Shown one piece after another: positions 1-17,212 of a stretch of DNA of 64,000 nt. The notes beneath the pieces were generated by a model that was given only the letters and a program-made list of their open reading frames with translations, did no database searches and had not been told where the DNA came from. Within the stretch, counting starts at the first letter, position 1; each line of letters begins with the position of its first letter. This DNA is from a bacterium (GTDB lineage Bacteria > Hinthialibacterota > Hinthialibacteria > Hinthialibacterales > Hinthialibacteraceae), in NCBI GenBank assembly GCA_963663405.2, contig CAXXSM010000088.1, forward strand, positions 34,360 through 98,359, given 5' to 3'. The position numbers and the translations under genes were made by a program.

Positions 1-330
1 GCGATCACCAAAGACGTGTGGGTGTCTTCGCAGTAATTTATCACAGATATTATTCAATACATCTAGAATATCAAAACGGTTATCCTCTTCTGCGACGCAG
101 GCGTGGAAAACCACTTGGAGGAGCACATCGCCGCATTCTTCCGCAAGGGCTTTGTCATCACCTTCATCCACACTTTCGACCAGTTCGTACGCTTCTTCAA
201 TCATGTATTTTTTCAAAGTCTCATGGGTCTGTTTCCGATCCCAGGGACATCCATCGGGAGCGCGCAACCTCGCCATGATATCCACCAGCTCTATAAATTT
301 CTCTGCGATCATTTTTTTTCGATCGATCAT
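1..330 (-). CDS. mazG: Nucleoside triphosphate pyrophosphohydrolase MazG (5' part; runs off the window edge)
   Basis: My translation of the minus strand from ATG 330 (GGAG upstream) gives [52 protein letters not shown]...[14 protein letters not shown]...[12 protein letters not shown]. These are classic MazG motifs. Not in the ORF track. Confidence 0.95.
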
Positions 331-407
331 CAAACTCTCCTGCACAGATTTAAGGTATAATGAATCATAGCATGACCCGGCTGATTTCGAATGTAGAGAG
401 AAAGAGA

Positions 408-1092
408 ATGACACAGCGATTTCTATTCTATTCTATAGTCATCATGTGTGGATTAATCGCGAACCAGACGGCGGCGGATGTGGTTATCTTCCATAACGGG
501 GATTTTAAATATGGGGATGCGAATGTTTTACCGAACGGGGATGTGATTTTGACTGTAAAAGGAGTTTCAAAAGTCTTCAAAGCCACACAAGTAAAGGACG
601 TGGTTAAGGGGATCAACAAACCCGCTCCTGGGGAGGTTGTCCGGGCGACGGATTTCGTCCATGCAGCGACATCTCAAATATTGGATATCACGGGTTGGAT
701 CACTCATCGCACAACCATGACAAATTATGATCAAAAGAAATTCACTATCGACGTGGAAGATGGTTTTGAGATTCCCATCATAAGCGTGTATCCAACCCAC
801 TACACTTTCTTCAAACGGCAGGGAACATTCATGAAAGCCGCGCTGATCAATTCTTCTTCGGATACCTTCAGGGCAGTCCATTTCCGTGTATTCATTTTAT
901 GATCTGCTTGATGAGGAAGAGAAGAAAATATGGGGGGATACGCCTGAAATTCTTCTTGGATCGAAAGATCTATATTTCCGGACTTTCCCAGGCCGAACCA
1001 AGGAGGGACCTTATCGCCTTAAAGTGGAAGTGGATATGCCTGATGTGCCCTATGAGCGGATCGATCGGATTCGGGTGATTCGGCGGTATTGA
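408..1092 (+). CDS. Hypothetical exported protein, split by one frameshift near 895
   Basis: ORF 360..902 has a signal-peptide-like N-terminus from ATG 408 ([23 protein letters not shown]). It overlaps ORF 886..1092, which continues it. Confidence 0.5.
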
Positions 1093-1236
1093 CCGGGGAT
1101 TTTCGTTTGAAGATTCACACGGCATCAAAAAACGCAATCTCTAAACCTTTTTCGTTTGAATCACGAAGCGCCCGGGAATATACAGATTTCATGGAAATAT
1201 TTCGTAGCCATCGCGCCTTTTCCGTGGCATCCGTGA

Positions 1237-2265
1237 TTAAAAATCCACCCCGATTCGAATCGCGGCGAAGGGGCCGTCGTCCAATTCAATCCGGTTATCG
1301 TTCCGGTCATCGTAATCTTCCCCTTCAAAGAAAAACCGGTCGAAGGCGAATCCACCGGATAAATCAAGATAGACATTTCTTGCCAATTCGATCTTGACAC
1401 CGCCTCCAATGCGCTTTTCGTAGAAAAAGAGCCGGTCATCGTCATCAAGCCGGTCCGCAAGGAAGAAGCGGTCATTATCCCAATCGAACCGTGTATAGAG
1501 ACTCACCGGTTTCATCATTTCATAGGTGACCTGCGCGTGGACTTTCCGGAGCGCGAAGTAATTCATTTCAATCCGCAATTCTTCAAACGGGCTGGCGTCT
1601 AAGAAAAGAAATGGAATGCCAACGGCGGCGCGGCAATATTCAGTGGGCTGAAAATAGTATCCGGCGCCGGGAAGAGGGATATTGTTCAAATATTCGCGGT
1701 TGTTGGAATAATGAAGAAACAAGAGCCAGGCGTTATCATCCGCGCTGGGGATTCGTAGAAATCCAGTCGCTCGTGTTTCCATCTCATCCCCACTATCAAA
1801 AAGTTCGTCGCTGGCCGAACCGAATTGAAGGTTTCCTCCTCCGATCCAATCATTGTCGAAAAGCCGCCGGTATGTCGTCCCAAATTGCAGAGACGTAAGA
1901 TCATCAGGAAATCGCCGCCCCGAATCAGGGAAGATGGCGCGGGTGTCAAAATCGATATAATCGATTGATGTATTGAGTGTCCATTCATTCTCCGCATTCT
2001 GCCAGGCCGGATAGATCAAACCCGCGTTGTGCCGGGTGAATTCCATATCCGCCGCCTGATGGCGGATACTTTCTTCGGCGAAGTATCCAGCCTCATAGAA
2101 TGGAATCGGTTTTAGATCGCCCATGGATGGTTTGAACCAGAGTTTCAGATCGCTCTGCGCCTCTGTGTTTGAAGGGATTGCGATCATCACAAGAAATCCT
2201 GCTCCAATCCAACAAGCGAAGGTATATAATAACCGAAAACTCATCAGATATTTTTTCCTTTTCAC
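1237..2265 (-). CDS. Putative outer-membrane beta-barrel protein
   Basis: Signal peptide, alternating amphipathic strands rich in aromatic residues and Gly, and a C-terminal ...AAIRIGVDF ending in Phe. Confidence 0.65.
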   Translation of the reverse strand: MKRKKYLMSFRLLYTFACWIGAGFLVMIAIPSNTEAQSDLKLWFKPSMGDLKPIPFYEAGYFAEESIRHQAADMEFTRHNAGLIYPAWQNAENEWTLNTSIDYIDFDTRAIFPDSGRRFPDDLTSLQFGTTYRRLFDNDWIGGGNLQFGSASDELFDSGDEMETRATGFLRIPSADDNAWLLFLHYSNNREYLNNIPLPGAGYYFQPTEYCRAAVGIPFLFLDASPFEELRIEMNYFALRKVHAQVTYEMMKPVSLYTRFDWDNDRFFLADRLDDDDRLFFYEKRIGGGVKIELARNVYLDLSGGFAFDRFFFEGEDYDDRNDNRIELDDGPFAAIRIGVDF

Positions 2266-2396
2266 TTTTCCATCCCCTATTCTTTCTTGTCTATTTTTGG
2301 TTAAGTATAGTTATACCCCATCTGTTGATTGAAAAAAAGAGAGCGGTTCTCTTTCCCAGAATAATAATAGAATAGCCGATTGGAGGGAAACAAAAA

Positions 2397-4450
2397 ATGA
2401 AGTGGAAAACCTTATTGTTAATTGTCAGCGGCATTGGACTTCTGTGGATGAGTACAGGCGCTTTTGCTGATACCTATCCCATTCAAACGGCGCCCGCCTT
2501 GGATCAGAGTAATAATATTCGAAACTATCTGATGCGCGTAGCGAGTGATGTGACCCATCACTCATTGGATGGAATCGAGACTCTTGACGATTGGAAAAAG
2601 ATCCGAAGTCAGCGCTATCAACAATACCTCGAAATGATGAGTCTGACAGATGTGCCCTTAGAAGGAGAACGTCCCGCCGCTTAATGTTCATATTGTTGAC
2701 ACGATCCAGCAGGATGGATTTCGTATTCAGAAACTCTGGTATGAATCTTTGCCGAAATTGTACGTTCCAGCGGATCTGTATATTCCCGATGGGATAACCG
2801 ATCCGGTTCCAGGAGTGATCTATGTCTGCGGTCATTCACGCACACAGAAAGTCCATTATCAAGGCTATCCAAGGAAATTCGCGCAGTTGGGATTTGTTTG
2901 TCTAATTATTGAAACCATTCAATGGGGCGAAGTGAAAGGATCGCACTGGGGATGCTATGCCGAAGGGCGTTTCAATTGGTACAGCCGGGGATACATGCCG
3001 GGTGGAGTGGAATTATGGAACGCCATTCGTGGATTGGATCTTCTCTGTTCGTTGGATGAAGTGAATCCGGACAAACTGGGCGTGACTGGCATATCGGGTG
3101 GAGGCACTCAGAGCTGGTACATCGCCGCCGCCGATCCACGGATTAAAGTATCCGCGCCGGTTTGTGGAACGTCGACTGTTGAATCTCATATCCACCAGCG
3201 CACCATTGATGGGCACTGCGATTGTATGATGCCGATCAACACCTACCTTCAGGATTTCCATGACATTGGCGCGTTAATCGCTCCCCGGCCTTTGATGATC
3301 GCATCCGCCGATCGGGATGGGCTTAATTCGATTGAAGCGGCCCATCAATGTCATGATTACATCAAGAAGATTTACGATCTGTATGGCGCGGGAGATAATC
3401 TGTATTTTGTTGAAACACCAGGAGGACATTCCTATCATGAAAGTTCCCGCACCAAAATCTTCTCCCTTTTTATGAAGGAACTTATGGGGAAAGATGTTCC
3501 TCCGGAAGAAGTTGGGGACATTGATCTGACTCAAGAATCGTTTCTCTCCGTTGAAGAATTGCAGATCTATGTTGATGGCCCTCCAACGGACGACCGCACG
3601 ACAACGATTCAAGATTCGTTTCAGAAAATGGCGGAACCGCCCTCGATTAAAACAACGGAGGATTTAAAACAATACCGGGGATCAAACCATTGCTCTATTA
3701 AAGGAAAAAACGTTTCGGGCGTTTCCAAAAGATCCTTGCGATTTATCGATCCGTCAGGAATTCAGAGCGCGTAATGGCAATGGAGGCTACCGTGATTACA
3801 GTTTTGTTCCGGAAGAAGGTTTCCGGCTACGTGTGAGAGTGCATTGGAGAGACAATCCAGACGCGAAACGGCCGTTATTGCTGGTCCTGCGCAATCCCAA
3901 CGAAGAACGCTGGGCGTCGGAAGGTTTCTCCAGTGGAGCGCCCTGGAACCAAGCGTATTTCGAGGCGCGCGGCATCGGCGCGACAAGCTGGAGTCAAGGA
4001 TTGCAATGGCACCTCCGGCGCGCGTCCGCTTGGACGGGGAGGACCATCGCTTCAATGCGTGTGTATGATGTGTTGCGGTGTCTGGAAACGCTTCGAAAAC
4101 TGGATGGAGTGGATGGTGATAAAATTGCGATCGCCGCGCGGGGAGAAATGGCGGCGGTAGCGCTATATGCGGCGTTATTGGACGGGAAAGTTCATACTGT
4201 TCTGCTCGCCGATCCTCCCGCGACACAGAATGCGGAAAGCGCGAAAGACGGACGGGGTGAAGCGATTGAAATGCTCAATTGCTTGCGCATAACGGATCTC
4301 CCTCAAACCGCCGCCGCGATCTGGCCGGCGCATGTTCGTTTTCTCGGAACTCCACCTTCCACATACAACTGGGCGTTAAATGTATCTGAAACGATTGGAG
4401 ATAAAAATAGAATACAAGTCATAAACCGCATGGCCGATTGGAGACCGTGA
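2397..4450 (+). CDS. Secreted alpha/beta-hydrolase (acetyl xylan esterase/dienelactone hydrolase-like), two frameshifts
   Basis: Three consecutive ORFs (2397..2684, 2749..3774, 3833..4450). Signal peptide, VIYVCGH, nucleophile elbow GVTGISGGG, ALIAPRPL, and a second degenerate hydrolase domain (GRTIASMRVYD). Confidence 0.8.
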
Positions 4451-6904: not shown

Positions 6905-7498
6905 ATGTTATCTGATCAGGAAAAGAAACAAAGCGCGTTTACGCTGATCGAGTTGTTGATTGTCGTGGCGATCATCGGCATTTTGGCGGCGATCGCCGTT
7001 CCAAACATGCTGAACGCGCAGATGAAAGCCCGCATCAGCCGCGTACACGCCGACCAGAAAGCCGTCAGCGACGCGTTGGAGATGTATTACATCGATTGGA
7101 ATACATATGTGGAAGACCACGATTACCCTTCGGACACGTCACAACGTGGATTATTCCGCTTGACCTCACCGATGGCGTATATGTCCTCCCTGCCCAGAGA
7201 TCCATTCATCCCTTCCTACAAAGAGGGGAACGAGGAAGACAATCCGACCTTTGAATTCGGTTCCGGCCACGCTACGCAATCCAAGCAATGGCCCGCGCAA
7301 GCGTATATTATCATATCACCCGGCCCGGATTTAGAAGAACAAGTCAGTGGAAACGACGGATTCCCCCGGAACGTAAAAATTTACCGCTATTCGATCACCA
7401 ACGGAACCATGAGCAGTGGGGATATCGTCCGATTGGGAGGAAATTACAATTCCGGCGTCATTGTGATGGATGGTAAGTATTTCGTCGGTTCTCCATAA
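6905..7498 (+). CDS. Prepilin-type N-terminal cleavage/methylation domain protein (GspG-like pseudopilin)
   Basis: SA|FTLIELLIVVAIIGILAAIAVP type IV pilin N-terminus with Glu at +5. Confidence 0.9.
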   Translation: MLSDQEKKQSAFTLIELLIVVAIIGILAAIAVPNMLNAQMKARISRVHADQKAVSDALEMYYIDWNTYVEDHDYPSDTSQRGLFRLTSPMAYMSSLPRDPFIPSYKEGNEEDNPTFEFGSGHATQSKQWPAQAYIIISPGPDLEEQVSGNDGFPRNVKIYRYSITNGTMSSGDIVRLGGNYNSGVIVMDGKYFVGSP

Positions 7499-7524
7499 AG
7501 TATAAGCGTTTATATGATTTCAAT

Positions 7525-7569
7525 AGATGGTGGGCTGCAATTTGTGTCAGCCCACCATCTTTTATTTTT
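7525..7569 (+). terminator. Rho-independent terminator after the pseudopilin gene
   Basis: 13-bp perfect stem AGATGGTGGGCTG / CAGCCCACCATCT with a 10-nt loop, followed by TTTATTTTT. Confidence 0.8.
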
Positions 7570-7652
7570 AGCTATTGATAAAAAAGAAAATGAATCGTAT
7601 GATGTGAATAGATGTGGACATTCGATTAATAATGATGAAGGATTGTATAGTC

Positions 7653-7799
7653 ATGTTAAAACAATTTACTTTAGAGTACTGGCTTGATGATGATTGGTAT
7701 GTAGGACGATTAAAAGAAGTCCCCGGCGTATTTAGCCAAGGAGAAACTCTTGAGGAACTGGAAGAGAATATACTTTACGCAAATCAGATTACTTTGTAA
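7653..7799 (+). pseudogene. hicB: Truncated HicB-family antitoxin (48 aa)
   Basis: MLKQFTLEYWLDDDWYVGRLKEVPGVFSQGETLEELEENI is a HicB N-terminal fold. It diverges and stops before the end of the C-terminal helix. Confidence 0.8.
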
Positions 7800-7835
7800 T
7801 ATATAGATAACCGTTTTTAATAAAGAGAGAATATC

Positions 7836-10049
7836 ATGGTAGATCCAGTAATGAGTATCGCTTCTGACACAGCAGTTGGGATTATCTCTGAATTATTCAA
7901 AAAAAGTCTCAGCACATTTAAAGACGCTAAAATATTGATTCGTAGTAAATATCAGAAAAGCAATTCAATTGGAATGAATGCTCGGAATTATGCAAATCAA
8001 ATGGAAATACGATATAACTCTATGCGTATCTTCGGAATGAGCGAACCACGACCTTTGCGCAATATATACGTAAGAGTAAATATCCTGGAGAAAATCCGCG
8101 CGCGAATGAGAATTTCTATTGAAGAATTAGAAAAAGCCGTGGATTGCGACAGGCTAGGTTTTGGAAATGTGTTGGAAACCAAGGCTGGTTTGAATGTGAT
8201 AGACGAGATTGAGAAAGTGATCGTTCTTGGGAAACCGGGAGCTGGTAAAACTACCTTTTTGAAATACATCGCTTTAATGGCGATGGATGGGAAACTGAAA
8301 AAAAACCGTATTCCCGTTTTTGTTGGTCTAAAAGAATGGTCGGATACGAAATTGGCTTTACTCGATTTTATAGTTGAACAGTTTGATATCTGTGGTTTTC
8401 CAGAAGCGAAACCTTATATCGAACATGTATTAAAACAAGGAAACTGCATTCTTCTTTTAGATGGTTTTGATGAAATAACGGTAGACCTTGATAAGGCGAT
8501 TAAAGAAATTCTTGATTTTTCGGACAAATACAGTAAAAACCAATTTGTTCTCAGTTGTCGTATCGCCGCGTTTAATTATGTATTTGAAAAATTTACTGAA
8601 GTCGAGATGGCAGATTTTGATGACGAACAGATCGAAGCGTTTATTAAAAACTGGTTTGGGAAAGATATAAAGACAGCGCATGAGTGTTGGAAGAAAATGG
8701 AAGAAAATAAATTCATTAAGGAGATCGCGTCTATTCCCCTTTTACTCACTTTACTCTGTCTGGCATATGATGAAAATTTGGATTTTTCTTCGAATCGCGC
8801 AGAATTATATGGTGATGGGATTGACACTCTTCTTAAAAAATGGGATAAATCGAGAAGAATCAAACGGCAGGAAATATACAAAAATCTCTTGCCTGATAGA
8901 AAAAAGAGTATGCTTGGAAAAATCGCTGCAAAGTCCTTTCAGGATAACCATTATTTTCTACCGAAGCGGACACTAGAAAATTATATCGCTGATTATATTC
9001 AACATCTTCCGGAAGCGAATATAGATTCCCTTCAATTGGATAGCGAAGCCGAATTAAAAGCGATTGAAGCGCAACATGGTTTACTCGTAGAACGTGCAAA
9101 AGGTATCTATTCATTCTCCCATTTAACTTTTCAGGAATATTTTACTGCGTATTATATAGTTGAAAACAAAGAAAAAGGAAGTTTTGAGATTCTTGCGAAT
9201 CATTTAAATGAAGATAAATGGAGAGAGGTTTTTCTTCTAACAGTGGGTATGTTGCCCGAAGCGGATGACTTTCTTTTATACGTACGAAAGAAAATCCATG
9301 AATTCACAAATCAGAGAATCTCATTATTCCTTGATACTGCAACTCAGTGTATAAAGGAAACATCCAATTACCCCCCTCATATTTGTAAAGTATTGTCAAT
9401 CAATATTGTTCTTTTTATTGTCAACTCTCTTCATTTACCTTATACCCATCGACGTGTTAATGATCGTGACCAAGCCTTTGATCTTGCTCATACGTGTGAA
9501 CTTATCCTAAACCTTGATCGTAACTTTTCTAGTATTCATTCTAGTATTATTAATCGTTCTCATGTGCGTGCATTTGCTTTTGATCTTGCCAATGACCTAG
9601 ATGTTAAGTTAAAAAATAATCAAATTGAAAAACTCGTTTTCGATTTTTTCTCTGATTTAAATAAAAAAGATATATCTTCTCTCTATCTCTACATACACAG
9701 TACTCATTTATTGGTGGAATGCCTTGATATAGGTTGTTATATTTCGAAAGAGACTCGGCAAGAATTGTTGGATAGTCTTTTAACGGAAACTTGGAAAGAA
9801 AAGGGAGTTATGTATGACCTTGAAAAGAAAGTAAATTTAATCTTCTTAAAACATTTTACTTTAGAGTATTGGATTGATGATAGTTGGTATATTGGACGAT
9901 TGCTGGAAATTCCCGGAGTATTTAGCCAAGGAAAAACTCTGAATGAATTGGAAGATAACATAATAGACGCTTTTAATATGATGTATGAAGAAGAGGAATA
10001 TACACCACAAAAAGATATTCACACTAAGAAACTAGGAGTCGCAGTGTGA
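7836..10049 (+). CDS. NACHT-family STAND NTPase with a C-terminally fused HicB antitoxin domain
   Basis: Walker A GKPGAGKTT, Walker B LLLDGFDE, SCR, IPLLL and winged-helix FSHLTFQEYFTA. The last ~70 aa (FTLEYWIDDSWYIGRLLEIPGVFSQGKTLNELEDNIIDAFNMM) are HicB-like. The sequence is visibly AT-rich. Confidence 0.9.
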   Translation: MVDPVMSIASDTAVGIISELFKKSLSTFKDAKILIRSKYQKSNSIGMNARNYANQMEIRYNSMRIFGMSEPRPLRNIYVRVNILEKIRARMRISIEELEKAVDCDRLGFGNVLETKAGLNVIDEIEKVIVLGKPGAGKTTFLKYIALMAMDGKLKKNRIPVFVGLKEWSDTKLALLDFIVEQFDICGFPEAKPYIEHVLKQGNCILLLDGFDEITVDLDKAIKEILDFSDKYSKNQFVLSCRIAAFNYVFEKFTEVEMADFDDEQIEAFIKNWFGKDIKTAHECWKKMEENKFIKEIASIPLLLTLLCLAYDENLDFSSNRAELYGDGIDTLLKKWDKSRRIKRQEIYKNLLPDRKKSMLGKIAAKSFQDNHYFLPKRTLENYIADYIQHLPEANIDSLQLDSEAELKAIEAQHGLLVERAKGIYSFSHLTFQEYFTAYYIVENKEKGSFEILANHLNEDKWREVFLLTVGMLPEADDFLLYVRKKIHEFTNQRISLFLDTATQCIKETSNYPPHICKVLSINIVLFIVNSLHLPYTHRRVNDRDQAFDLAHTCELILNLDRNFSSIHSSIINRSHVRAFAFDLANDLDVKLKNNQIEKLVFDFFSDLNKKDISSLYLYIHSTHLLVECLDIGCYISKETRQELLDSLLTETWKEKGVMYDLEKKVNLIFLKHFTLEYWIDDSWYIGRLLEIPGVFSQGKTLNELEDNIIDAFNMMYEEEEYTPQKDIHTKKLGVAV

Positions 10050-10222
10050 AGCGAAAAGAATTTATTCGCGAATTGAATGCGGCTGGCTGTTATTTGAAAC
10101 GTCATGGGAACCGACATGATATTTATGAAAATCCAAAAAATGGGAATAAAGCCCCAGTGCCACGACACAATGAAATTAAAAATGATCTCTGTGATTTGAT
10201 ACGCAAGCAACTAAGAATTTAA
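10046..10222 (+). CDS. hicA: HicA-family toxin (mRNA interferase), 58 aa
   Basis: My translation from GTG 10046 (AGGAG upstream, GTGA overlap with the NACHT stop) gives MKRKEFIRELNAAGCYLKRHGNRHDIYENPKNGNKAPVPRHNEIKNDLCDLIRKQLRI. It has the HicA G-x-x-H catalytic His and VPRH motif. Below the ORF-track length cutoff. Confidence 0.92.
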   Translation: MKRKEFIRELNAAGCYLKRHGNRHDIYENPKNGNKAPVPRHNEIKNDLCDLIRKQLRI

Positions 10223-10243
10223 AGTTATACTTTTTTAATCTCC

Positions 10244-12593: not shown

Positions 12594-15113
12594 CTAGAAA
12601 AGGTTCCACATATCAATTGACGTTGCGGGAGGATGGTCAGAATTATTGTTGTTGTGGATGGATAAGGTGATCCTCTTTTGGCTGGACACTCCCTGAGTAT
12701 CTGTTACCTCAGTTTCTAACAAACACTCACCATCATTCAGCAATTGTGTATTTAAATCAAAAAAGTAAACGGCTTCTCGCAGGGGTGGATCAAAAATGAA
12801 TTCCCCATCGATCCCCTCTGTTTCCGGATTGTCAAAAACCATCCCATTCACCTTACAAGTAATGCGGGACACATCATTCACGCTGGCTCCATAGATTTGA
12901 ATCGGAATCGTTCCAGAGAGATCTTCCGTGTTGTATGGCGAAAGAAAAAACGCGCGTGGTATTCCACTGGGAAATCGCATTCCAGTGGCGCAGAGCGCGA
13001 ATAACTGAGACGGTCCTTGGTTAACTTGGCCATTGACTTGAATCGTATAGGTTCCTGGCTGGGGAATCTCGATATACACCTGCTCTATATTATCTCGATG
13101 GTTTTCTTGGTTCTGACGCGCCGATTGGGAAGGATTGGAAGGATCGAGAGTCCAAGGATAATGGATTCCTTCCGGCCCGATGATAGAAAGGTCGAGATCG
13201 TTGATTAAATTACCCGTGTTATCATCGACTCCTCCCGCTATAGGAATCGCAGGGGGATCGCTCCAAGCGATTGTCACTTTGATAGGGCCGGAGCCAACAT
13301 AATCACCAGTATATTCCAACGGTGTCTCTCGGTACGAATCGAGTTCAATCCGGCGCCCATACCGGCTATGCTCGCTCAGGAAATCAGCCGCCGCCCGCGC
13401 GTCGAGTAATCCCCAACCAAAGCGGTAATCCGGACCCGGTTTAGCGAAACCGGAATAAATCGCGGTATGGATCATCAAGCATTTAATAAACGCCGCGCTG
13501 GGATCCATGTTCTCGAATTTCTGACGGAACAACTGAACAAGACAAGCGGCCGCTCCAGTCACGACGGGAGCGGAAGAAGAGGTTCCGGATAGCCGATCAT
13601 AATGAGTGTCCGAATCAGCGCCCATTGATAGAAGCTTATATCCATTCGCGGTCAGATCCGGTTTGATCCGTCCATCATCGGTAGGCCCCCAGCTGGAGAA
13701 CGAAGTCATCGTTGAATCATACGGAGCCGGGGGTTCGTGCGTCAGATCAACGACAGCGCCAACCGTGATGATGTTTTTAGCGACGCCGATTGGATTGATT
13801 GTATCGTATCCAAGATCGTTATAGGGAATGACCGTTTGTGAATCAGCGCTGGATTGCATTGCGCCACCCAGCGATCCCATCGGGAATGCCCCCAAACTGT
13901 TTCGCTGATTTCCCGCCGCCGCAATGGAGATGATATTATGTTCTCGAACAATCTGGTCGAAGGCGCCGTTTTTGTATTGATAGCGGCCCAAGAGATGCGA
14001 TTCGTATGGGCTGAGTTTCGGGTTTCCGTACCAGTTCCATTGCATCGACAATTCGTTGTAATTCCACCCCACACTGGTCGCGTAAGAATGGTTGGATACG
14101 GAAATCAGATCTGCGTTCTGTTCCATCTCATTCAAATCATTATGATATGACCAGCAGTATAACATCGCGTTTGGGGCCATACCCTGCGCTTGAAGATTCC
14201 CCGCCCCGCTTCCAGCAATGGTTCCCGCCACGTGAGTTGAGTGAAAAAAAGGCCCTGTGTCTCTATCAATATTGACGGCGCGCCCACGGATCTGTTCGTG
14301 AGTGCTTCGTATTGTTCCGGTATCCCATAAGCCGATATTGACGCCGGTTCCATCCAAATCATATCCGCTAATGCCTCCAGGATGGATTTCATCGATATTT
14401 GACGTGTCTTGCGCGTCCAGGTTACAAGGCCGGAGAGGGGGATCGGTTTCAGTAATGAGAAATATAGACTCTTCCACCGCCAATCCACGTATGTTTTGTG
14501 AGTGAATGGAGACAGAATTCAGAGTTTGATGATAATCGAATGTATCGCGCGTTGTTTCTATTATGGCTCCATACGTTTGAAGAACCGCTGAGGCATCTGA
14601 AAAAGACGTGTCAGAAAAGAACAGAATTTTCACATTAATCGGATTAGTGTTTTGAGGATACAAAGAACTAGAAGATGCTGATTCTTCGATCTCAGACCGT
14701 AAAGAGGCGTCTATTTTCGCTTCTAAAGGGATCTCAATAATTCCATTTAGCAAATCAAATTGCTCTAAAGAGTAAAGCGCGTTTTCATCGGCCCAGATGA
14801 AATACGCGTTTGTGGGGATATATTGAATGAAGCGGATACCTGCATCTATAAGTGGTTTCCGATCGCTTGGCGTTAAGGGACGTTTGAATTGAACGAGAAA
14901 ATGATGGGTACTGGATTTGGCTTGAAACGATCGCAATGACGTTTTTTGAGTAATAGAGAAATTCTTCCCCGCTAATCGAATCGATTCCTCTTTCGCCATA
15001 ATCCCACTCGGAACGAGAGCGATCAGGAAAATAGAAAGCAGATAATGAATCGATAAATGCCAAACTTGTGTTGGCCATGTTTGTTTCATATAAACCATCA
15101 TGAGTGAGATCAC
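12594..15113 (-). CDS. Secreted S8 (subtilisin-like) serine peptidase with C-terminal Ig-like domain
   Basis: Catalytic triad motifs IGLWDTG, HSTHVAGTIAG and SGTSSSAP, plus AAAGN and FSSWGPTDDGRIKPD. C-terminus is PPATSIDMWNLF. The start is uncertain (ATG 15089 is plausible). Confidence 0.92.
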   Translation of the reverse strand: MISLMMVYMKQTWPTQVWHLSIHYLLSIFLIALVPSGIMAKEESIRLAGKNFSITQKTSLRSFQAKSSTHHFLVQFKRPLTPSDRKPLIDAGIRFIQYIPTNAYFIWADENALYSLEQFDLLNGIIEIPLEAKIDASLRSEIEESASSSSLYPQNTNPINVKILFFSDTSFSDASAVLQTYGAIIETTRDTFDYHQTLNSVSIHSQNIRGLAVEESIFLITETDPPLRPCNLDAQDTSNIDEIHPGGISGYDLDGTGVNIGLWDTGTIRSTHEQIRGRAVNIDRDTGPFFHSTHVAGTIAGSGAGNLQAQGMAPNAMLYCWSYHNDLNEMEQNADLISVSNHSYATSVGWNYNELSMQWNWYGNPKLSPYESHLLGRYQYKNGAFDQIVREHNIISIAAAGNQRNSLGAFPMGSLGGAMQSSADSQTVIPYNDLGYDTINPIGVAKNIITVGAVVDLTHEPPAPYDSTMTSFSSWGPTDDGRIKPDLTANGYKLLSMGADSDTHYDRLSGTSSSAPVVTGAAACLVQLFRQKFENMDPSAAFIKCLMIHTAIYSGFAKPGPDYRFGWGLLDARAAADFLSEHSRYGRRIELDSYRETPLEYTGDYVGSGPIKVTIAWSDPPAIPIAGGVDDNTGNLINDLDLSIIGPEGIHYPWTLDPSNPSQSARQNQENHRDNIEQVYIEIPQPGTYTIQVNGQVNQGPSQLFALCATGMRFPSGIPRAFFLSPYNTEDLSGTIPIQIYGASVNDVSRITCKVNGMVFDNPETEGIDGEFIFDPPLREAVYFFDLNTQLLNDGECLLETEVTDTQGVSSQKRITLSIHNNNNSDHPPATSIDMWNLF

Positions 15114-15184
15114 AATGCATAAATGAAAATGAGTTGCAGTAAATATCTCGAAAGAGTAAGCCTTAGGAACTCATTTTTATATAA
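15084..15184 (+). repeat. Dispersed ~91-bp hairpin repeat, copy A (core 15123..15180)
   Basis: Linker TAAACCATCATGAGTGAGATCACAATGCAT followed by core ATGAAAATGAGTT...AACTCATTTTTAT. Confidence 0.85.
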
Positions 15185-15331
15185 AGGATTAACACTTCTC
15201 TTCTTGTTTTAAGAAAAAGATTTTAGTATAAGGGTTATTAGTGAAGTATATCAAATTAATAGTTTTGCGCCAAAACGGTGGAAGGGATTTTACAAATGCT
15301 TACAAAAGCAGGAAGAAGTTAAAATATACAT

Positions 15332-17212
15332 TTAGACGGAGGGCATGGACAAGACTTTATCACGGGCGTCGGCAATTTTGCGCAGGTCATCGGTTAGCAT
15401 TAAACCCAAGCCGGTTAGCGCGTCTCGAATCGACTCGAAATCAGTTGACGTAAGATGAATAATATTAGGAAGGTTCTTAACGCTTGAACGAATTGAATTT
15501 GACATATCCGCCACGCTTTGACTCATCTTGTCCGCATAGGTTTTCAAGAGTTCGTGACTGGGGAGCAAGACAATCACATCGGCGTCGAATTTCACATATT
15601 CCATGAGCTGACGCAACGAATCCCCCATGCTTTTCCCTTTTTCTGTAATGTACTTGCGTCCATCAGCGACGGCAGTGGATATTTTTTCCGATGTGTCAAC
15701 AACATTCGCGCCAAGCTCACTAAGGAAGGTTTCGAGCATCTGCTGAAGCCGTTTAGACGCTCCGATCGACGAAACAGTTATCCGTTTTCCAAGAAGTGAA
15801 TGCAGACTCTTGGGTAAATCGGTTTGCAACGGCTGCAATAAAGCCTGACGCAGTTCCTCTTCATATGGTTTGTTTTTCTTATGCCAATTCCGAAGAACGT
15901 AATGGCCCGCGCCGCGAAGAAAAAATTCCATCCAATCCCCACGGATTAACCGTGCGAACGCCCGCTTCAAGGAATAGAAATCTCTCATGGCCACCATACT
16001 TTCTACCTGGAGCTCATACGGGGTCATTTTGGCGGGAACGTGGACGACGTGGTGACCATCATATTTAGTCCAATCCCTCGTTATCAAGGCGCGTTTATTA
16101 TCCTGAAAGGCCTTAAAATCTCTCGATCCAGGAATCGGGGTCAACACCATCAATTGAAGAGTATCAATATGATGTTTTTTCGCAAACTTGAGTGTTTCCC
16201 TGATGGTCGCCACATCATCTTCATCAGAGCCTAGAACAAACATCCCATGAATTTTCACATTATAACTGTGGAATGTTTCGATCGCTTCAACAATGTTGTC
16301 TAAGGTTTCTTTTTTATTATACAATTCAAGCGTTTTGGGATTAATAGATTCAAAACCGACGTAAACACGGTCGCAATTGGAGCGGCGCATCAATTCAAGC
16401 ATTTCCTTGTCGCGGCAGGCTTCATGCCGCACTTGCGCCCCCCAGCTTGGTGTCAGTTTATTTTCAATCATCCCACGAAGGATCTGTTTCACCCGTTGAC
16501 GGTTCCAATTGAAACAATCATCGACGAAGAACAAGTAATGCGCCCGGCTATTATGAGTATAATGAAACTCCACCTCTTTCAGTACCCGTTCAACGGACAT
16601 GGCCCTGTATTTTCTGCCATTAAAAGCAGTCACCGAACAGAATGAACAGTCACAGGGACATCCCCGGCTGGTACAAACACAGACGACACTCATATTCGGA
16701 ACTCCGCGCGCCAAGCGGAAATCCGGAATGGGATTTTTATTGAGATCGTGTGGCAATGGACAGTCTAGATTGTGTTGTATCTTCCCCTCTTTCCAATAGG
16801 AGAGTCCTGGAATCTTCTCGTAATCCCCATCACTTGAGAAGGCTTGCATGAAATCAACGATAGATTCATCCGCCTCCCCGCGAAGAATGAAATCCGCATG
16901 TTCGAGCGCTTCTTCCGCCAGGAACGTCACATGCGTGCCTCCCATGATGACAGGAATTCCCATGGCCCGGATCCGGTCGGCGAGGGCGTATGAATACGGG
17001 GCTGTGGAACTTAACGCCGAAATTCCAACTAAATCGGCATTCTTAACGATATCAAAATCGAGCGGCGCAATATCTTCGATGTATACATCAACATGGTACC
17101 CGAGTTCGTGGAGAATTGAACCAAGCTGAATTGATCCCAGGCGGGGTATATGAACATCGCTGAAAACATGGTAATTCGGGGCTTTTGTTTCGATAAGAAC
17201 AATTCGTTTCAT
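15332..17212 (-). CDS. B12-binding domain radical SAM protein with a C-terminal extension
   Basis: N-terminal cobalamin-binding region (DLVGIS, VIMGGTHVT, RGEAD), TSRGCPCDCSFC (CxxxCxxC), FFVDD, VYVGFES, HGMFVLG, and ~150 extra C-terminal residues. Confidence 0.9.
   Translation of the reverse strand: MKRIVLIETKAPNYHVFSDVHIPRLGSIQLGSILHELGYHVDVYIEDIAPLDFDIVKNADLVGISALSSTAPYSYALADRIRAMGIPVIMGGTHVTFLAEEALEHADFILRGEADESIVDFMQAFSSDGDYEKIPGLSYWKEGKIQHNLDCPLPHDLNKNPIPDFRLARGVPNMSVVCVCTSRGCPCDCSFCSVTAFNGRKYRAMSVERVLKEVEFHYTHNSRAHYLFFVDDCFNWNRQRVKQILRGMIENKLTPSWGAQVRHEACRDKEMLELMRRSNCDRVYVGFESINPKTLELYNKKETLDNIVEAIETFHSYNVKIHGMFVLGSDEDDVATIRETLKFAKKHHIDTLQLMVLTPIPGSRDFKAFQDNKRALITRDWTKYDGHHVVHVPAKMTPYELQVESMVAMRDFYSLKRAFARLIRGDWMEFFLRGAGHYVLRNWHKKNKPYEEELRQALLQPLQTDLPKSLHSLLGKRITVSSIGASKRLQQMLETFLSELGANVVDTSEKISTAVADGRKYITEKGKSMGDSLRQLMEYVKFDADVIVLLPSHELLKTYADKMSQSVADMSNSIRSSVKNLPNIIHLTSTDFESIRDALTGLGLMLTDDLRKIADARDKVLSMPSV

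Follow-up and report, generated by a model that had tools for sequence, protein, structure and literature searches.

A singleton in-frame join of a NACHT NTPase gene to the antitoxin gene of a hicBA pair in a Hinthialibacteraceae genome

Bacterial NACHT (bNACHT) proteins of the short form, which combine an NNH-type N-terminus with an NCH2 tail, are antiphage proteins whose genes are normally standalone. The text of Kibby et al. (bioRxiv 10.1101/2022.07.19.500537) describes bNACHT01 as not being in an operon, and the word "antitoxin" does not occur in its main text. Here we analyse a stretch of 64,000 nucleotides (nt) from a bacterium of the Hinthialibacteraceae (assembly GCA_963663405.2, contig CAXXSM010000088.1, positions 34,360 to 98,359), called the window below, in which a gene for a protein of this kind runs in frame into a hicB antitoxin gene whose stop codon overlaps a hicA toxin gene. 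The window protein is like the bNACHT proteins in its NACHT domain, which scores above the family cut-off, in its NCH2 tail and in its intact Walker A and B motifs; the closest plasmid homologue of its NACHT part is, like bNACHT01, a standalone gene. It differs from them in its C-terminal HicB, which none of the relatives examined carries, and in standing apart from its best homologue (51% identity), the antiphage role of its clade being only putative. The second half of the locus resembles the HicAB type II toxin-antitoxin (TA) systems (E. coli, 6HPB; Burkholderia, 6G1C, 6G1N and 6G26; TTHA0281, 2DSY). It shares with them a HicA of 58 amino acids (aa) with its His and a HicB fold predicted to cover HicA, and its gene order and 4-nt gene overlap match those of eight complete free relatives. 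Unlike these systems, the window antitoxin belongs to a subfamily in which the DNA-binding domain is absent throughout; it also has no separate start codon and forms the tail of an NTPase of 650 residues.

Two further systems bear comparison. In CapRel, toxin and antitoxin reportedly form one chain in which the antitoxin part is itself the sensor. The locus shares with fused TA phage sensors of the CapRel(SJ46) type (PMC9712102) a TA component inside a larger polypeptide, which might be a direct sensor whose trigger would release the toxin; it differs in that its toxin is a separate protein and in that its sensor would be a STAND NTPase. The main text of Kaur et al. 2020 (PMC7159879) presents the TA-derived DUF397 toxin as a recruited co-effector of vWA-MoxR/VMAP NTPase conflict systems, which sets a precedent for the recruitment of a TA toxin by an NTP-dependent conflict system. 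According to the same text that toxin comes without an antitoxin and its linkage recurs (~4% of VMAP-ternary systems), whereas the window holds both TA partners and a unique link; neither HicA nor HicB occurs in that main text. Full-text searches of the literature turned up no description of a NACHT-HicB/HicA architecture, which agrees with an earlier note on this DNA; supplementary architecture tables might bear on its novelty.

That note, made from the sequence alone, had proposed a defence system in which a sensor akin to nucleotide-binding leucine-rich repeat receptors (NLRs) gates a TA toxin. We consider it probable, instead, that the locus is a real, lineage-specific join between a normally standalone NACHT gene and the antitoxin of an ordinary hicBA pair, which would still be the antitoxin of HicA. 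The fusion has the look of a recent accident within a small TA islet, not of an established defence system.

The anatomy of the locus is as the earlier note had drawn it. A single 737-aa open reading frame (ORF) carries a full NACHT module and a helical tail, on which the ORF list and the Pfam matches agree (Table 1). The NACHT domain (residues 128-276) matched PF05729 at 53.5 bits against a cut-off of 26.7. The NCH2 domain (residues 592-650) matched PF22727 at 29.9 bits against a cut-off of 27; the match is partial, covering profile positions 37-95 of 96, and its conserved end motif aligns with that of 15 homologues. Walker A (GKPGAGKTT, residues 132-140) and Walker B (LLLDGFDE, residues 206-213) are both intact, and G132, K133, P134, G135, G137, K138, T139, T140, D209, G210, D212 and E213 were invariant in 16 aligned NACHT sequences, the query included. 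The absence of a recognisable enzymatic effector at the N-terminus was also borne out: this region had no Pfam match, and the protein atlas returned only leads below 0.9 to NACHT N-terminal helical domains. Residues 560-737 had no usable match in the atlas. Matches of the NACHT part to models of defence genes were weak (E 1.5e-15 for PADLOC PDC-S60; 50.7 bits for NCBIfam EruA, whose cut-off is 1000), and a phage collection contained only five weak NACHT-like matches at 24-26% identity, none of them relevant.

The relatives of the NACHT part indicate where such a protein usually ends. There were 3964 homologues, the best 51% identical, and all of the 15 closest aligned ones stop no more than 11 residues past query L649, right at the in-frame ATG at position 9810 of the window. 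The other 119 homologues listed were likewise free of Pfam families of the HicB or UPF0150 kind. Relatives of greater length (~820 aa) bear a TIR domain ahead of the same conserved N-terminal region. The NACHT type of the fusion is usually encoded by a lone single gene. On plasmids, 186 records had NACHT homologues; the best 12 reach no further than query residue 651, the top one being an isolated gene.

Behind NCH2, a linker of ~20 residues leads into a complete short HicB domain, as the earlier note had read it. In Pfam this tail stays below the cut-off of UPF0150 (PF21748; 27.3 bits), reaching 16.7 bits when the whole ORF is scored and 21 bits when residues 659-737 are scored by themselves; a free relative (L084, 26.8 bits) also narrowly misses the cut-off. 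We nevertheless assign the tail to HicB because it is 50-65% identical in the alignment to 11 free hicB relatives, which have the hicB-before-hicA gene order, because it retains 22 of the 22 invariant columns of the free-hicB alignment, and because the family profile gives matches, if weak ones, to TTHA0281 (2DSY, E 0.0025) and to the solved HicB chains 6G1C and 6G1N. The domain comprises 67 residues and has no C-terminal ribbon-helix-helix or helix-turn-helix domain, which is also the case of its free relatives (61-83 aa). Judged by these residues and by the modelling described below, the fused HicB looks functional. The adjoining 58-aa ORF, unannotated until then, matched HicA_toxin (PF07927) at 39.8 bits against a cut-off of 27. 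Its GTG start (10046-10048) overlaps the TGA stop of the fusion (10047-10049) as GTGA (10046-10049), a profile comparison placed its His24 opposite the His of HicA from E. coli (6HPB), and it has 26 invariant columns in common with 8 relatives; ORF list, Pfam and alignment here all agree with the earlier identification of a HicA with its catalytic His. The genome contains six HicA places and three places of this hicB subfamily, namely the fused copy, a truncated copy that lies just upstream in the window and a third one, at 47% identity, interrupted by a stop codon.

The canonical start codon of hicB precedes the F of FTLEYW by exactly four codons, both in the upstream copy of the window and in all 15 free relatives compared; it is ATG in that copy and in 12 of the relatives and TTG in the other three, and a GGAG-type motif usually stands 5-10 nt ahead of it. 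The fused copy has TTC (F670) at this position, one change away from the TTG of the three relatives, and no GGAG-type motif stands ahead of it. The sole other start is the in-frame ATG 9810, and the GGAG of the Shine-Dalgarno (SD)-like motif before it ends 2 nt upstream. Over 3172 long ORFs of the genome, SD 4-mers were most frequent when 6-9 nt separated them from the start (16% at a spacing of 7 nt); at 2 nt their frequency was at background (1.8%). Internal initiation at ATG 9810 is for this reason less likely than the earlier note had feared when it warned that free HicB could be made there. Since the canonical start is lost and ATG 9810 is badly spaced, we infer that HicB is mostly made as the tail of the 737-aa protein and that HicA probably relies on this protein. 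The NACHT gene itself has no GGAG, GAGG or AGGA motif upstream of its start (7836), and hicA retains a good SD motif.

The other two frames close at the junction, at TGA 9815-9817 and TAA 9832-9834. A single base added within the A/G-rich run 9795-9809 would produce an 11-residue NACHT tail as in homologue P0002, with a stop overlapping ATG 9810. As this one base would separate the genes, a 1-nt deletion is a simple route to the fusion, and the other caveat of the earlier note, that a stop codon had recently been lost, was strengthened. The same arithmetic invites the reading that the genes are in fact separate, the open frame stemming from an error of sequencing or of the consensus, or else from a minority allele, within 9795-9809, with NACHT ending at TGA 9815-9817 and HicB starting at ATG 9810. 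One added base would indeed restore a NACHT tail of normal length and a ATGTATGA start/stop overlap with AAGGGAG in front, the word depth is only ~4.3 and the sole full-length holder of the locus is the probable source sample. We nonetheless find this reading very unlikely. An 11.9-kb Logan contig of run X1, the probable source sample, spans 7500-10240 and, although built by a second assembler, had 0 differences from the window over 2741 nt; the open frame across 9770..9850 was thereby reproduced, from the same reads and not from an independent sample. The canonical hicB start is missing as well, independently, which a single error cannot account for, and the 2-nt SD-to-ATG spacing is disfavoured in this genome. 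An assembly chimera through the two hicB copies was considered and rejected: their longest exact common run is 15 nt, which makes a repeat-driven misassembly unlikely. Among the other holders found, none was an RNA sequencing run; runs X3 and X4 gave next to no cover, and X2 gave short low-depth contigs of no more than 250 nt. The X2 pieces at 7870-7909, 9106-9148, 9717-9798 and 9854-9892, possibly from other NACHT or hicB genes, were left unused.

In order to see how far the fusion recurs, protein and genome collections were searched from both of its halves. Residues 655-737 were compared with proteins of 405-1290 aa, and the only one of 24 candidates to pass was the window's own protein. The 98-aa tail, searched without length limit against 1.84 billion cluster representatives, gave 772 matches at E <= 0.001, the best 150 of which were all 58-119 aa long. 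With a HicB profile, 15 matches were obtained among 7999 scored candidates of 173-2000 aa, and the sole NACHT protein was again the window's own. The remaining 14 were single-member clusters of 176-307 aa. Eight of them had Pfam families (VTT, Uma2, AP_endonuc_2, ECH, RidA, PNPOx, HicA and, in one, UPF0150 only) and six had none; at least seven unrelated domains are each represented by a single join to this hicB subfamily. Ten of the 14 joins were read in detail: six place HicB behind other sequence and keep an internal Met 3-4 residues before FTLEYW, one places HicB behind PNPOx without this Met, two have HicB first, leading into other sequence, and one leads from HicB into HicA. Because the same hicB shows such sporadic one-off joins to adjacent genes, the NACHT join is an instance of a background phenomenon.

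The genomic neighbourhood of NACHT relatives gave the same picture. A genome scan matched 586 stretches, 556 of which encode NACHT relatives, and the best 80 (35-51% identity) were kept. None of these 80 loci held a fused NACHT-HicB, and only three had a HicA within 4 kb on either side, both with a hidden Markov model built from 17 seeds and with phmmer. One of the three has the genes adjacent and co-directional and is discussed below; in another (L014) a hicBA pair is convergent just downstream of NACHT, and in the last (L061) it lies ~1 kb upstream on the opposite strand. An ORF started no more than 450 nt downstream of NACHT in 70 loci, most of the other ten ending too soon; Pfam assigned these 70 ORFs to 62 families, none of them present in more than 5 of the 70, with ParE in two and UPF0150 in one. 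Conversely, no NACHT piece was present in 15 metagenome loci of the closest free hicB genes (52-72% identity), whereas hicA was present in 12, eight of which were complete with the 4-nt overlap. By these comparisons, a hicBA neighbourhood is not conserved around such NACHT genes.

The interaction between the two TA partners was modelled with ORF residues 640-737 (13-row alignment) and HicA (9-row alignment). The median of the interface score ipSAE was 0.77 and the best control reached 0.01. The mark set for this score is reached by 58 of 80 solved complexes and by 2 of 110 mismatched pairs, counts that are approximate here, our own alignments having been used. At least 98% of contacts were common to the runs, and the predicted local distance difference test (pLDDT) of the partner was at least 88. 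The predicted HicA interface extends over ORF residues 679-716, no linker residue taking part, and His24 of HicA is predicted to contact residues 708, 711 and 712. HicAB complexes have already been solved and the pair is a textbook one, for which reason the good model may reflect solved structures that the predictor had learned. The complex prediction proposed earlier thus came out with HicA bound over His24, and the model supports a tethered HicB that binds HicA over its catalytic His as a likeness to known complexes, not as binding by this copy. A full-length AlphaFold2 model of the fusion (16-row alignment) had a mean pLDDT of 63.8 and a predicted template modelling score of 0.46. Its HicB tail, with block means of 29-69 and drawn as helices, was uninformative on docking; this part is poorly modelled because one sequence alone covers the tail in the alignment.

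These results bear directly on the gated system of the earlier note. In that model the NACHT-HicB protein would be a dedicated antitoxin, and sensing of a phage would drive an ATP-dependent oligomerisation or conformational change that frees HicA to cleave RNA and abort the infection. Its architecture stood up to analysis: the fusion ORF is intact with both Walker motifs conserved; the lost canonical start and SD motif of hicB and the badly placed ATG 9810 make HicA probably dependent on the fusion; the NACHT protein is of the short form without an enzymatic effector of its own, in a family with relatives that carry an N-terminal TIR; the modelled HicB covers His24 with the linker left free; and NTPase conflict systems are reported to have recruited a TA-derived toxin, DUF397, elsewhere (Kaur et al. 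2020, PMC7159879). The claim that this architecture is a system did not fare as well. The earlier note had held that a fusion confined to one genome would speak against it, and none of the searches yielded a second case; proximity to hicBA is not conserved either, and the same hicB subfamily occurs in 14 other one-off joins to unrelated proteins. Furthermore, antitoxin output would be tied to a NACHT start without SD motif while hicA has a good one, an awkward toxin-to-antitoxin ratio for a stable design. We therefore regard a dedicated gated system as unlikely. A related reading, in which the join left HicA with the NACHT protein as its sole antitoxin and hence created a freshly born NLR-type sensor whose activation, by ATP-driven oligomerisation or by turnover, would release a trans-acting RNase, is equally unlikely. 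Singleton status also speaks against a third role, one analogous to that of domains integrated into plant NLRs, in which HicB would serve on the NACHT sensor as a bait for phage factors attacking HicB-type antitoxins. The sole point in its favour is that a domain has been added where a STAND protein has its sensor end. The HicB domain still stands ahead of its own coupled hicA, no phage factor of this kind came to light, though no search was aimed at one, and we consider such a decoy extremely improbable.

On this basis, we propose that two ordinary modules were brought together by a trivial event. The first is a short-form NACHT/NCH2 STAND NTPase and the second a canonical antitoxin-first hicB-hicA pair, both wedged in one islet between housekeeping genes. 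A mutation at the gene boundary, either a 1-nt indel or a small deletion, would have made the join. As the NACHT gene is without a stop and hicB without its own start and SD motif, HicB would be produced mainly as the C-terminal 67 residues behind the ~20-residue linker. Translation of hicA would stay coupled to that of the fusion through the GTGA overlap, the tethered HicB would still cover the HicA active site and keep the RNase silent, and the hicBA pair would remain a TA module of the addiction or abortive-infection type. The NACHT portion of the protein would act as its unfused relatives do, some of which have an N-terminal TIR. The fusion protein would thus be the working antitoxin of HicA, and the activities of NACHT and HicA would be uncoupled.

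Several observations weigh against this proposal. Intact HicA probably depends on the fusion protein, and a tethered-antitoxin design would look alike. The fused copy is also unlike most of the other one-off joins, six of the ten read having kept an internal Met at the hicB start where the window has TTC without SD motif. The NACHT part of the fusion is intact whereas its paralogues are broken. Locus L051 is the sole co-directional adjacent case among the 80: a NACHT gene (810 aa) with its own stop is followed after a 30-nt gap by hicB and hicA. All comparisons are bounded by database content, and the closest NACHT relative is only 51% identical, which leaves the locus without close kin for comparison. 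Finally, since a singleton cannot be dated, "young and neutral" is how we read the locus and not a measured age. Concerning L051 itself (179-3131, on a contig labelled as a Rhizobium sp. metagenome-assembled genome), its hicBA is of a different subfamily, and a fragment of an insertion sequence-type transposase lies at the contig start.

Table 1. Features of the NACHT-hicB-hicA islet, in window coordinates.
Feature	Position	Strand	Details and basis
Hairpin and U-run that form the intrinsic terminator of the prepilin-type gene to the left	7522..7569	+	Left edge of the islet; arms 7522-7537 and 7548-7563, 94% complementary
Best sigma-70-like site of the islet, TTGATA-17-TATGAT, 10/12	7575..7603	+	Candidate promoter, upstream of the hicB remnant
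Diverged direct repeat of 133 nt	arms 7648-7780 and 9838-9970	+	80% identity; hicB remnant versus fused hicB
Truncated first hicB copy, 48 codons, MLKQFTLEYW...	7653..7799	+	ORF list, UPF0150 25.4 bits, alignment with the fused copy
NACHT-HicB fusion ORF	7836..10049	+	737 aa, ATG start, TGA stop; ORF list, Pfam, homologue searches
NACHT NTPase domain, residues 128-276	8217..8663	+	Pfam and alignment of 16 sequences
NACHT C-terminal helical domain 2 (NCH2), residues 592-650	9609..9785	+	Pfam; usual C-terminal end of the family
Linker, residues 651-670	9786..9845	+	A/G-rich run 9795-9809; SD-like AAGGGAG 9801-9807; in-frame ATG 9810 (M659); TTC 9843-9845 (F670)
Complete short HicB antitoxin domain, residues 671-737, without DNA-binding domain	9846..10046	+	Alignment with free hicB, profile matches
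hicA, 58 aa, GTG start, AGGAG 5 nt upstream, His24 kept	10046..10222	+	ORF list, Pfam, alignment

The locus lies in an islet of 2.7 kb that is AT-rich relative to its neighbours, as had been noticed before: the GC content of its genes is 0.32-0.37, compared to 0.50 and 0.55 in the two flanking genes. The flanking genes are of ordinary kinds, with a DJ-1/PfpI gene and a prepilin-type protein on the left; on the right, a gene for a GH57 branching enzyme is followed by those for a VTT/DedA protein and a subtilase. The terminator hairpin at the left edge (7522-7563) folds at -25.9 kcal/mol (z -5.4), and 0 of 200 shuffled sequences folded equally well. Sigma-70-like sites were no more frequent in the region than in shuffles (10 against 11.3 expected), which makes the promoter-like site of Table 1 a weak lead. 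As the terminator ends the upstream gene and this site precedes the remnant of the first hicB, the likely transcription unit is the remnant followed by NACHT-hicB and hicA.

In the remnant, hicB homology stops at about 7780-7789, after about 45 codons, and 101 of 126 nt are identical to the fused copy. It keeps most of the predicted HicA-interface residues (equivalents of ORF residues 679-708), and those contacting His24 are absent. Short contigs of run X2, which belongs to another study, match 7510-7715 with 6 differences and 7686-7789 with 7 differences. Past 7789 the X2 contig diverges from the window and, by eye and in the hicB frame, resembles a normal hicB 3' part; because it reads on in this manner, this one low-depth contig gives a weak hint that a relative holds the first hicB intact. 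A 24-nt imperfect direct repeat (18/24) was also noticed, with one copy after the remnant (7798-7821) and the other at the 3' end of hicA (10216-10239). Chance tests disagreed on it: by identity it was equalled in 1 of 2000 shuffles and in 0 of 331 islet windows, and by scored local alignment in 256 of 2000 shuffles and in 23 of 207 windows. Nothing resembling it was present in the flanks of 8 free hicB relatives. The repeat is an unexplained hint, which might stem from a first hicBA with a ~228-nt internal deletion or from the repeated flank of an inserted cassette.

Synteny was compared with family-level relatives. In one of them (G009; contig C132, L100 676-1379), a PIN-type toxin/antitoxin pair occupies the same site 3' of the GH57 gene, in DNA of lower GC content (0.44 compared to 0.54); TA modules seem to land at this intergenic position. 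Another relative (G012; contig C17, L108 4178-4381) has a free 67-aa hicB with ~80% DNA identity to the remnant and no hicA behind it, hence an orphan antitoxin. The orphan stands directly behind a DJ-1/PfpI gene, and the window too has a DJ-1/PfpI gene two genes upstream of the remnant. Paralogues of the NACHT gene, one in the genome itself (G000; C100 31000-33400; L110 4027-6400) and one in G012 (C79; L109 3588-5360), are each split into three ORFs and are likely pseudogenes or frameshift errors. One of these two split paralogues has a TIR-like N-terminus. Given the remnant hicB, the PIN pair at the same site in a relative and the broken NACHT paralogues, the islet is visibly in flux.

Such flux also raises the possibility that the join disables one or both of its parts, by a C-terminal addition that cripples NACHT or by a silent hicA, and that the islet is heading for loss. 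The truncated hicB next door, the broken NACHT paralogues of the genome and of a relative, and the position of the fusion directly behind the conserved C-terminal motif of the NACHT family would all suit such decay. All three coding parts are however intact, every invariant family residue is kept and there is no internal frameshift or stop, and we accordingly hold decay to be quite unlikely.

Two observations concern the surroundings of the islet. The region of the prepilin-type N-terminal methylation motif (6926-7030), in the 197-aa gene of the left flank, had well over a hundred matches at 72-90% DNA identity in the genome and its relatives; this gene belongs to a very large paralogous family. 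A second AT-rich stretch (14501-15500, GC content 0.37-0.40) is located at and upstream of the 5' end of the subtilase gene.

If the fusion protein were the working antitoxin of HicA under NACHT control, an NLR-like sensor of bacteria would here be wired to its effector in a new way. The locus would then show a defence architecture being born of a trivial mutation, and give a snapshot of how a TA toxin comes to serve a STAND sensor as effector. On present evidence, it mainly illustrates how often adjacent genes in TA and defence islets merge, and it advises caution in taking domain fusions from single genomes as systems.

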